From NCBI GenBank assembly GCA_963717465.1, contig OY970340.1, positions 1,248,001 through 1,312,000 of the forward strand: a DNA stretch of 64,000 nt, given 5' to 3'. Shown here piece after piece: positions 49,636 through 57,462 of the stretch. The DNA is from Candidatus Bathyarchaeota archaeon (GTDB lineage: Archaea; Thermoproteota; Bathyarchaeia; Bathyarchaeales; Bathycorpusculaceae). Within the stretch, counting starts at the first letter, position 1. Each line of letters opens with the position of its first letter. A program made the position numbers and the translations under genes. Below the pieces are notes generated by a model that made no database searches, was not told the DNA's origin, and saw nothing but the letters and a program-made list of their open reading frames with translations.

Positions 49636-50082
49636 ATGAAATGTCCCTATTGTGGCTCTGAAAATTTCAAAACGTTGGAGACACGCGATTCCCCAGAGAA
49701 CACTACGCGTAGACGGAAAGAGTGCATCAGTTGCAGTAAGCGCTTTACAACTTACGAGTACTTGGAAACTATAGAGTTTATGGTGAAAAAGAAAGATGGT
49801 AAGCTTGAGCGTTTTGACGTTAACAAGATAATTCGAGGTCTACAAAAAGCGTGTGAAAAAAGACCTGTAACTATGAATCAAATCAACGAGTTAGCAGCCC
49901 TTGTGCGGCAAGACCTCATGATTAAAGGTGCAGAAGAAGTTGCGTCTCAAGAAATCGGGGATTTAGTAATGAAATACCTTAAAAAAATTGATAGAATAGC
50001 GTACATCCGATTTGCCTCAGTTTATAAAGAATTTGAGGAGCCTGAAGATTTCAGGCGGTTATTGCTTGAGGTGAAAAAATGA
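49636..50082 (+). CDS. nrdR: Transcriptional repressor NrdR
   Basis: MKCPYC, RRRKEC..CSKRFTTYE, ATP cone, AYIRFASVY. Confidence 0.96.
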   Translation: MKCPYCGSENFKTLETRDSPENTTRRRKECISCSKRFTTYEYLETIEFMVKKKDGKLERFDVNKIIRGLQKACEKRPVTMNQINELAALVRQDLMIKGAEEVASQEIGDLVMKYLKKIDRIAYIRFASVYKEFEEPEDFRRLLLEVKK

Positions 50083-52211
50083 AATATGTATTAAAAAGAG
50101 ATAGTAAACTAGAACAATTCGATCAAGAAAGAATTACAACCGCCATTTGGAAAGCGGCTAAAGCCGTTGGCGGAAAAGATAAAGAGCAAGCGAAAAGAAT
50201 AAGCGACGAGGTAGTTGTTGAGCTTCACAAACGCTTCGGCGAAGACGGAGTGCCTACTGTTGAAGAAATTCAAGATATCGTTGAAAAACGGTTAATTGAA
50301 AATGGACATGCACAGACAGCTAAAGCCTACATCCTTTACAGAAAGCAGCATAATGATATGCGTGAGTTAGCTGCACTTTTAAGCTCTGCAGATATGGTGG
50401 ACCAGTACCTTGAGGTCGAGGACTGGCGTGTTAAAGAGAACTCGAACATGAGTTATTCACTTCAGGGTTTAAACAATTATTTATCATCAACTGTTATAGC
50501 GAAATACTGGATATCCCGAATTTACCCATCGAATATTGCTGACGCCCACTTTTCAGGCGACATTCATATCCATGACTTAGGCGTTCTTGGACCATACTGT
50601 GTTGGCTGGGATTTAAGCGACCTACTACTTTCAGGATTCGGCGGCGTCTCGGGAAAAATTGAAAGCAAACCAGCAAAGCATTTCCGCACAGCTTTAGGTC
50701 AAGTTGTGAATTTCTTCTATACGCTGCAAGGTGAAGCTGCAGGCGCTCAAGCATTCAGCAACTTTGACACTTATCTTGCACCATTCATACGGTACGATAA
50801 CTTAAACCAAAAAGAAGTGGAACAGGCACTGCAAGAATTCTTTTTCAACATGAATGTTCCAACAAGAGTTGGTTTTCAAACACCATTCACGAATTTAACT
50901 TTGGATTTAACAGTTCCAGACTTCATGAAGAACGAGGCAGTTCTCTACAACGGTAAACTTGCTCCTGACACGTACGCTGACATGTCTAAAGAGATGGAAA
51001 TGTTCAATTCAGCTTTCGCAGAAGTCATGCTTCAGGGAGATTCTAAAGGCAGAGTCTTCACTTTCCCAATACCCACCTACAATATCACCAAAGATTTTGA
51101 TTGGGATCAAAAGTTGCAAAAGGAATCTTTGAAGTAACAGCCAAGTACGGCGTGCCCTACTTCTCAAACTTCATCAATAGCGACATGAAACCAGAAGATG
51201 TTCGAAGCATGTGTTGCCGCCTTAGAATAGACAACCGTGAACTGCGCAAACGAGGCGGTGGATTCTTCGGCGCTAATCCACTCACAGGCAGCATAGGCGT
51301 AGTTACTCTGAACATTCCAAGAATTGGCTACCTATCAAAGAACGAAGACGAATTCTTCGAACGCCTAGGAAATGTTATGGACGTTGCTAAATCAAGTTTG
51401 GAAATTAAACGTAAGATGCTTGAAGCATTTACCGACAATGGTCTTTACCCCTATTCACGACATTACCTACGCCACATTAAAGAAGGCTATGGAAAATACT
51501 GGAAGAACCACTTCGCAACCATAGGTGTAGTCGGAGTAAACGAAGGCGTCATTAACCTGTTAGGCCAAAATATTGCTACAAAAGAGGGGCAGAACTTTGC
51601 AGTTAAAATGCTCACTTTCATGCGCAATCGCTTATCAGACTATCCAAGGGGAAACAGGAAACATCTACAATCTTGAAGCAACACCCGCAGAGGGGACATC
51701 TTATCGCCTTGCACGCATCGATAAACGCCGATACCCAGCTATAATTATGGCAAACCAAAAACAGGTGATAGCAAATCATGCAGAGCCATTCTACACTAAC
51801 TCTTCACAGTTACCAGTAGATTATAACGGCGACTTGTTTGAAGCATTGGAGCACCAGGAAAGCCTTCAAACACTGTACACGGGAGGAACAGTATTCCATA
51901 TTTTCCTTGGCGAACGACTGCATTCTTGGCAATCAGCTGCTGAATTAATCAAGAAAGTCGCGTATAATTCCCATTTACCATACTTCACGTTAACGCCTAC
52001 ATTCAGTATTTGCCCGACACATGGTTACACAAGCGGTGAACATTCACAATGTCCAATCTGTGGTTCAAAAAGCGAAATCTACTCTCGAGTTGTCGGCTAC
52101 TTAAGACCAGTTGACCAATGGAACGATGGAAAACAAGCAGAATTCTCAATACGCAAAACCTTCGACAAATCAACCATGATGAATACCGTACCTATGCCCA
52201 TTTCAACTTAA
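50079..52211 (+). CDS. nrdD: Class III anaerobic ribonucleotide reductase with ATP cone (frameshifts near 51100 and 51645)
   Basis: VLKRD ATP cone, RSMCCRL, EATPAEG, CPTHG..CPIC, SRVVGYLRP glycyl-radical motif. Confidence 0.95.
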
Positions 52212-55871: not shown

Positions 55872-56129
55872 TTACAGTATTGACGGAAGTGACTTGCGAA
55901 GTTCGATGTAAATTCTTCTTCCTTCTTCAGTCAAAAGGCAGCAGTTTTCAGTAGTTTCTTTTATTAATTTCTTGTCCTCTAGATACGTTAAGTGTTTTAG
56001 AAAATCGTCGTAGGAAAGATTTGTCGATTTTCTCCAGATTGCAGTTCTCAATTGTGGCTTTGGGCTGAAGAATAGATACTCCAGAATTTCAAATCGAATC
56101 TGGGCGGCGCTTTTTCTGGGTTTTCCCAT
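55872..56129 (-). CDS. Small archaeal winged-helix regulator
   Basis: RKSAAQIRFEILE..TAIWRKSTNLSY..LEDKKLI..LTEEGR. Confidence 0.8.
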   Translation of the reverse strand: MGKPRKSAAQIRFEILEYLFFSPKPQLRTAIWRKSTNLSYDDFLKHLTYLEDKKLIKETTENCCLLTEEGRRIYIELRKSLPSIL

Positions 56130-56334: not shown

Positions 56335-56887
56335 TTGAGTCCTAAAATGCAATCAATCGAGGAACGCAAAGCGGAAGTCCTAATTAAACTTAAGAAAATA
56401 CAAGCTTATAAAAAAGGAGAAGTTTGAAGAAGCCCTCGCTTACATCATTGATATTCCACAGGATAAAGAGAAAGCTCTTGTCTGGTGTATTCCTGGGGAG
56501 GCAACCGTCGGTATTGCTGCTATGAATACGTTGTATAAGATAATGAAAGAAAAGGAAATTGAACGTGCCATAGTAGTTACGGAGGGACGATACACGCATG
56601 CTGTTAAACTTGTGGCAAAAAAGAAGAACGTGGAGTTGCTTCCAAAGTCGTTTCCAGTATTTGATATTTTCGAGCATGCGCTTGTGCCATTTCATGAGAT
56701 TTTGAGTGAAAAAGAAAAGAATGCGTTACTCGCGCAATTCAGGGTTCAACCGTATCAGATGCCTCAAATAAAATCAGCTGACCCCGCGGTCAAAGCAATA
56801 GGTGCTAAACCAGGCGATATTCTAAAAATAACCCGGAAAAGCGCAACAGCTGGAGAGCACGTTACCTTCAGGTACGTTGTAGAATAA
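56335..56887 (+). CDS. rpoH: RNA polymerase subunit Rpo5/H with an N-terminal RPB5-like extension (one frameshift near 56392)
   Basis: HALVPFHEIL, MPQIKSADP, GDILKITRKSATAG..RYVV; about 105 extra N-terminal residues; SD GAGGT before TTG 56335. Confidence 0.93.
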
Positions 56888-56901: not shown

Positions 56902-57462
56902 TTATTTTGCAACAATAATTTCTGTTGATTTTATAATTGCTGTAACTTCATCGCCGACTTTTATATCTAAGTCTTCAACTGCTTCTTTAGTTATTACTGA
57001 CGTAATGGTAACTGGCATTTTTACTTCCACCTTAACTTTTGCTGTGATAACGCCTTTTTCAACAGATACTACTTTTCCTTTTAACTGATTTCTTGCACTT
57101 AACTTCAATTCTCTCACCTTCAAACTATTTGGCTCAGATAAGACTTTATTCAAGTACGTTTCTACTTGCCTAAACTCTGCGAGCAAACTTTTCCCAAGGT
57201 CAGTGAGGATTGCGCCGCCTCCGCCTGATTTGCCGCCTTTGTAGGTTTCAATGATCGGAGCTTCTACTGCATTTTGTATGTCTTGAAGGTAATTCCAAAC
57301 GTAACGGTATGACATCCCTAAGTTTTCTGCTGCTTTAGAAATGGATTTTTCTTTTTCTATTTGTTGAAGAATTTCTGCGCCGCCTTCGCCTATGACTGGA
57401 TTGCCTTTGTATTCAATCCAAATTTTGCAGGAGAGCTTGTGCTTCTTGTTTGCTAGCATCAA
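56902..57462 (-). CDS. modE: ModE-family molybdate/tungstate regulator with TOBE domain
   Basis: SISKAAENLGMSYRYVW, GGKSGGGAILT, SARNQLKGKV, IKSTEI. Confidence 0.9.
   Translation of the reverse strand: MMLANKKHKLSCKIWIEYKGNPVIGEGGAEILQQIEKEKSISKAAENLGMSYRYVWNYLQDIQNAVEAPIIETYKGGKSGGGGAILTDLGKSLLAEFRQVETYLNKVLSEPNSLKVRELKLSARNQLKGKVVSVEKGVITAKVKVEVKMPVTITSVITKEAVEDLDIKVGDEVTAIIKSTEIIVAK

Follow-up and report, generated by a model that had tools for sequence, protein, structure and literature searches.

A two-domain Rpo5 in Bathyarchaeia with a predicted inactive nuclease-fold front domain, probably related to the RPB5 jaw

Typical archaeal Rpo5 is a protein of about 75-85 aa that corresponds only to the C-terminal assembly domain of eukaryotic RPB5, and its gene heads the rpoH-B-A operon. 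Does an archaeal polymerase exist whose Rpo5 also carries the jaw domain of RPB5? The question is raised by a gene in a 64,000-nucleotide stretch of Candidatus Bathyarchaeota archaeon DNA (contig OY970340.1, positions 1,248,001 to 1,312,000; hereafter the window), for which an original prediction had proposed that removal of one extra base near 56392 yields a product of about 183 aa with an RPB5-like jaw segment in front of the Rpo5 core. The features of the gene, in window coordinates, are as follows.

56335..56887, plus strand: two-domain rpo5 (rpoH) gene of 183 codons when read through a one-base insertion, from comparison with congeners (homologues of 183-199 aa)
56335..56388, plus strand: first 18 codons, in the upstream frame, forming the start of front-domain helix 1 and matching EERKAEVLIK of 19 congeners
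56390..56393, plus strand: single extra base with a shift of frame, most likely an assembly error, judged from the codons of 19 congeners and the frameshift rate of the assembly
56393..56644, plus strand: remainder of the N-terminal domain, a predicted inactive Mrr-type restriction-nuclease fold, probably homologous to the RPB5 jaw domain
56660..56878, plus strand: Rpo5/RPB5 C-terminal (assembly) domain, matching PF01191 over its full length (1-73, E 1e-28)

The C-terminal domain is that of archaeal Rpo5/RpoH (PRK09570; PDB 4qiw_H, 2pmz_H, 1eik), scoring 100 bits on PF01191 against a cut-off of 23.5 and 102 on PRK09570 against 83. The protein differs from the short archaeal form by about 100 extra N-terminal residues and by a gene that stands away from rpoB, the latter as predicted: rpoB lies at 1,780,199, about 475 kb from rpo5, and the place in front of it is taken in this genome by unrelated genes, with no short rpo5. 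The gene gave the only PF01191 match in a profile search of the genome (one contig, 88% complete), and because it is the only Rpo5 there, the long protein presumably serves as polymerase subunit H of this cell. Rpo1 of this genome is one fused chain of 1281 aa (L032:11567-15409), followed by L30e and nusA. In the window, rpo5 stands tail to tail with a ModE-like regulator with a TOBE domain (56902-57462, minus strand), a neighbour kept in 16 of 29 relatives' rpo5 loci among those listed, and a small winged-helix gene (55872-56129, minus strand) diverges upstream. A scan for sigma-70-type promoters and terminators, which is not suited to archaea, gave results at chance level.

The N-terminal domain was compared using an alignment of 36 sequences from across the class Bathyarchaeia. 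All 36 match both Mrr_cat and NA-iREase1, with weak sequence similarity, whereas none matches Pfam RNA_pol_Rpb5_N (PF03871) at E<=0.1; thus, of the two families against which a HMMER comparison had been suggested, only the nuclease one was recovered directly. A profile of the N-terminal domains alone, searched with HMMER against PDB sequences, nevertheless places eukaryotic RPB5 first, over the human segment named in the original prediction, and RPB5 accounts for 11 of the 13 matches at E<=10 (best E 1e-5). For the full two-domain profile, the best PDB sequence match is plant RPB5, in an alignment continuous across the domain junction. Profile comparison with one eukaryotic RPB5 gave a probability of 39% (E 3e-4). 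A search of 1.84 billion representatives with the class N-profile gave diverged two-domain proteins, one of them in a cluster named Heimdallarchaeota: of the best 150 matches, 30 carry the C-terminal domain, none of these 30 looking eukaryotic, and Mrr proteins occupy much of the same 150. In the ESM Atlas, which serves here as a lead only, the nearest clusters have the Mrr_cat plus Rpb5_C architecture.

The fold was examined using a structure model of the N-terminal domain of one congener (101 residues, pLDDT 94). It superposes on residues 5-131 of mammalian RPB5 with Z 10.1 and rmsd 2.9 over 96 of its 101 residues, so that structural similarity to the RPB5 N-terminal domain is present over nearly the whole model. 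The same model is equally near, or slightly nearer, to nucleases: EndoMS and AF1548 give Z 10.7 and rmsd 2.6, a wide structure search ranks AF1548 (10.7) and NucS (9.5) above plant RPB5 (8.6), and the top Foldseek match is EndoMS. Since the scores for RPB5 and for the nucleases are so close, the fold alone cannot choose between them. Taken with the profile matches and the common domain order, these results uphold the alignment by eye from which the original prediction started, and support a tie between the front domain and the RPB5 N-terminal domain, as judged by sequence comparison and modelling. A model of both domains together (pTM 0.53, rmsd 14 to RPB5) leaves their orientation undefined, and a predicted complex of the N-terminal domain with the last 477 residues of one congener's Rpo1 scored 0.00, which speaks neither for nor against an interaction.

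Several variants of the domain were met. One long Rpo5 (L059:1492-2187, minus strand, G145) carries, close to where its front domain ends, an insertion that resembles a zinc ribbon (CxxC...CxxC), and another (L078, G043) is without the last helix and strand of that domain. Among the closest relatives of the front domain outside Rpo5 is a family in which the same dead nuclease domain stands before a helical, cysteine-rich domain instead of Rpo5 (L367 of the present genome, 2677672-2677944, minus strand; P0164, P0167, P0170, P0174, P0178, P0187); two members tested gave no NCBIfam match. The present genome also encodes a stand-alone protein of 120 aa from the same fold family (L368, 68386-68553, minus strand).

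The long form is not special to this genome. An Rpo5 match was obtained in 149 of 151 genomes of the class, and among the 145 class genomes listed, 84 have frames of at least 167 aa and 61 are short. In the remaining phylum, none of 122 among the matches listed exceeds 147 aa (hand count). Asgard genomes match in 139 of 141 cases, with frames of at least 164 aa in 97 of the 139 (hand count), and the long form is thus carried by most Asgard genomes sampled. Frame length is a proxy in these counts; the N-terminal domain was confirmed by profile in the loci taken as long, 57 of the class and 56 of Asgard archaea. According to source names, which were available for 13 of 20 proteins and included a lineage name for 8, long forms occur in Heimdallarchaeaceae, other Heimdallarchaeota, Thorarchaeota, Jordarchaeales and Borrarchaeum, and short forms in Odinarchaeum and Baldrarchaeia. 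As a rule rpo5 is single copy per genome.

Further architectures occur among the Asgard proteins. In eleven genomes (L113 and 10 others), long rpo5 is present as a tandem pair spaced by about 650 bases; the L113 form resembles the one named Thorarchaeota. Three proteins of 436-498 aa (L247, L248, L249), one of them named Heimdallarchaeota, have two or three nuclease-fold repeats before the C-terminal domain. Six long proteins of Heimdall type (L244, L245, L246, L250, L270, L271) end in lysine/alanine/proline-rich C-terminal tails of 90-170 aa, and one such tailed protein weakly matches the histone H1-like HC2. One Heimdallarchaeota record (L083:752-2280) has, after its long rpo5, a gene similar to 2-phospho-L-lactate transferase.

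The two forms differ sharply in their surroundings. For loci that extend 700 bases or more downstream, the class has rpoB directly after 0 of 55 long rpo5 genes and after 18 of 19 short ones. In Asgard archaea the figures are 0 of 52 for long genes and 15 of 15 for short genes, and pooled they are 0 of 107 against 33 of 34. These are counts of loci, not of independent lineages; six duplicate or fragment loci were left out, and six long loci had less room. The single short gene of the sample not preceding rpoB is L057 (G058). In all of 15 long-form genomes, no rpo5 stands before rpoB, two of these having fewer than 450 bases upstream. Four class genomes with several matches were checked and hold no second short rpo5, their extra copies being long or broken. 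Two genomes (L362 in G048, L363 in G103) carry second, frameshifted long copies beside an intact one. A quick tree was made from 36 rows of RpoB. All its long forms fall in a single clade (SH-aLRT 97), which has 15 long and 7 short members; on the deeper branches and in the outgroups, rpo5 is short and keeps its place in the operon. The outgroup is not monophyletic in this tree, and the long/short pattern on it needs at least three changes. Because of the operon counts and this tree, the long gene seems to have replaced the copy in the operon, either through a gain within the class or through retention with differential loss.

Eukaryotic RPB5/RPABC1 (PF03871 plus PF01191; PDB 1dzf, 8uhd_E, 7eu0_E, 9mu7_E) has the same order of two domains, with a dead nuclease fold first. 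It differs in its length of 205-215 aa against about 183 aa here, in about 30 extra residues, inserted behind the first strand of its N-terminal domain, that the long Rpo5 is without, and in scoring on PF03871, which the class N-domains do not. A set of eukaryote-type RPB5 was collected by a metagenome scan (119 loci, 16 near-complete frames) and 13 N-terminal parts were used as a profile. The first 13 ranks in its search are Asgard long forms (best 46 bits), the best class sequence comes 14th (28.9 bits), and the best active Mrr-type domain reaches 27.2. Medians are 22.4 for Asgard forms, 19.9 for the class and 15.2 for active Mrr-type domains; the gap between the class and these decoys, which had been chosen for likeness to the class profile, is small. 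With Pfam Rpb5_N, three of seven Asgard forms match under the cut-off, the best (E 1e-4) being of Heimdallarchaeaceae type, and both eukaryotic controls pass.

Quick trees of the two-domain proteins place eukaryotes with Heimdall-group forms and Borrarchaeum (SH-aLRT 57 with 60 rows, 91 with 35 rows) and apart from the Bathyarchaeia class; an AU test of eukaryotes and the class as one side gave p 0.056, so that this arrangement is not rejected. A tree of the C-terminal domain (101 rows, 77 columns) is mostly without resolution. The two-domain and C-domain trees come from short searches and are weakly supported. The tree comparison that the original prediction had suggested does recover a link between eukaryotic RPB5 and archaeal two-domain forms, on weak support, but the link leads to the Heimdall group rather than to the present lineage. 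Judged from these sequences, eukaryotic RPB5 appears closest to the Heimdall-group forms.

Whether all these proteins descend from one fusion must be weighed against convergence, in which Rpo5 was joined more than once to an inactive Mrr-type domain, in the class, in Asgard archaea and in eukaryotes, and the front domain is an analogue of the jaw. This main rival agrees with the tie in fold between RPB5 and the nucleases, with the universal match to Mrr_cat and the missing match to Rpb5_N, and with the patchy spread on the RpoB tree. Two other proteins of this genome belong to the domain family as stand-alone members and are possible donors. In addition, the C-terminal domains of class long forms are 57% identical to class short forms against 47% to Asgard long forms; identity thus tracks the class, as a separate fusion would also produce. 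On the other side, a search with the class N-profile finds both RPB5 and the long forms of Asgard archaea, with the same start, length and junction, and the eukaryotic N-profile favours Rpo5-linked domains over Mrr. Moreover, in both the class and Asgard archaea the long form is always paired with loss of the operon position, which is most simply read as one event. Repeated fusion of similar dead nuclease domains is consequently an improbable account, while a single fusion origin shared by the N-terminal domain and the RPB5 jaw domain is likely.

The second alternative concerns the present gene rather than the family. From the probable start at TTG 56335 (ATG 56347 is possible), the upstream frame closes at TGA 56425, and a second frame, which is open from 56384 up to its stop at 56887, contains the jaw-like segment and the Rpo5 core. 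The listed ORF, as the original prediction noted, is only 121 aa long and starts at ATG 56522. In a codon-by-codon comparison, all 19 congener loci run in a single frame through the break site (...K-L-R-K-Y-K-L), and the present sequence has one extra base within 56390-56393. The product with X at the break has 183 aa and aligns end to end without gaps with the four intact homologues compared (85.8-89.6% identity), so that the proposed extra base and product length hold. The assembly is indel-prone: when it was compared with the proteins encoded in 400 kb of a congener genome, 25 of its 145 matched genes change frame, against 6 of 154 congener genes in the reverse comparison. About one gene in six thus shifts frame, and split genes of this genome should be distrusted. 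The anaerobic ribonucleotide reductase gene nrdD (50079-52211, plus strand) lies in three consecutive frames that span one profile end to end, which fits such an assembly. Given this error rate, the break in rpo5 is very likely an artefact and the gene intact. Programmed frameshifting was ruled out, because the break is shared by none of the 19 congener loci.

A frameshift that is real in the strain would leave the 121-aa protein as sole product, an ordinary short Rpo5 with a remnant of the extension. The break is present in the assembly, the C-terminal domain is intact behind an in-frame ATG, and broken second copies of long rpo5 occur in two other genomes. Nevertheless, the part before the break is conserved as well as the rest, and together with the intact congener loci and the frequency of frame changes in this assembly this makes a real frameshift very unlikely. 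If it were real, the finding at the level of the family would be unchanged.

The front domain shares its fold and a weak sequence similarity with Mrr-type and NucS (EndoMS) PD-(D/E)xK nucleases (PF04471, PF22722; PDB 1y88 for AF1548, 5gkj for EndoMS), and differs from them in the loss of conserved catalytic residues and in its fusion to a polymerase subunit. The catalytic positions are taken here to be the aspartate and the (Q/E)xK motif of the Mrr family, the motif being seen also in the Mrr matches of this study. An aspartate stands at the catalytic site in 4 of the 36 class N-domains, W-C-I mostly occupies the strand where Mrr proteins carry (Q/E)xK, and no acidic residues are conserved at the nuclease strands. 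Helix 1 holds the only residue that is invariant among the 36, an arginine. The domain has a basic character, with a median net charge of +5. Alignment and model together show an Mrr-type nuclease fold that is predicted to be catalytically dead. That the domain keeps a nuclease or repair role, such as cutting DNA at stalled polymerases, instead of forming a structural jaw is hardly credible in view of these replaced catalytic positions and the lone invariant arginine, even though its closest folds include the repair nuclease EndoMS/NucS and some Asgard forms retain an aspartate at the first catalytic position.

The preferred reading is that of an intact Rpo5 with a dead nuclease domain at its front, acting as a jaw-type subunit H and sharing its fusion with RPB5, for which a probability of about 0.7 is estimated. 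The C-terminal domain would dock on the C-terminal part of Rpo1, as is established for the family in archaea, and would carry the basic N-terminal domain to the downstream end of the cleft. By analogy with RPB5, it is reasonably probable that the N-terminal domain lengthens the lower jaw, touches the DNA downstream and provides factors with a surface. Rpo13 of Sulfolobales is a separate small subunit of another lineage, and no homology to it is claimed. As to history, the fusion may have formed away from the rpoH-B-A operon, and the fused gene would then have taken over from the short copy of the operon in one Bathyarchaeia subclade and most Asgard lineages; eukaryotes would have taken it from the Asgard side and later gained the insertion of about 30 residues. 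A single fusion of a dead Mrr-type nuclease to Rpo5 in early Asgard archaea, passed to one Bathyarchaeia subclade by transfer or hidden paralogy and to eukaryotes through a Heimdall-group ancestor, is slightly favoured as the full course of events.

In the portion of PMC2847245 available, the RPB5 N-terminal domain is described as unique to eukaryotic polymerases and is proposed as the reason why the archaeal lower jaw rearranges in elongation and that of Pol II does not. The same portion reports that H binds the C-terminal part of Rpo1 near downstream DNA and that yeast Rpb5 rescues archaeal polymerase without H (PMC2847245). Rpo5 of Asgard archaea and Bathyarchaeota has been modelled with AlphaFold3, the N-terminal domain being treated, in the part of that article available, as part of eukaryotic Rpb5 (PMC13257274). 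No description of a two-domain archaeal Rpo5 was found in the literature searched, including the available parts of PMC7289017, PMC13607799, PMC13556214 and PMC13539645, and likewise of PMC8160253, PMC10833476 and PMC13545438; Asgard signature-protein tables could hold one. Databases already display the Mrr_cat plus Rpb5_C architecture, without comment.

The two-domain archaeal Rpo5 is real and conserved, contrary to the textbook statement that restricts it to eukaryotes. A natural archaeal form of this kind puts the origin of the jaw module before eukaryotes, and since Asgard archaea commonly carry this long form too, the RPB5 jaw module of eukaryotic polymerases probably arose in archaea. 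On present sequence comparisons, the Bathyarchaeia lineage is a side branch and the Asgard forms are nearest to eukaryotes, the long Rpo5 being an added marker that points to the Heimdall group. The proposal on jaw rearrangement, as given in the available part of PMC2847245, becomes testable with archaeal two-domain Rpo5. If the course of events with a single early Asgard fusion is the true one, the RPB5 jaw would be an unrecognised eukaryotic signature, the lower jaw of the polymerase in these archaea would be of eukaryote type, and a direct test of what the jaw contributes could be made in sister lineages that differ in having short or long Rpo5.
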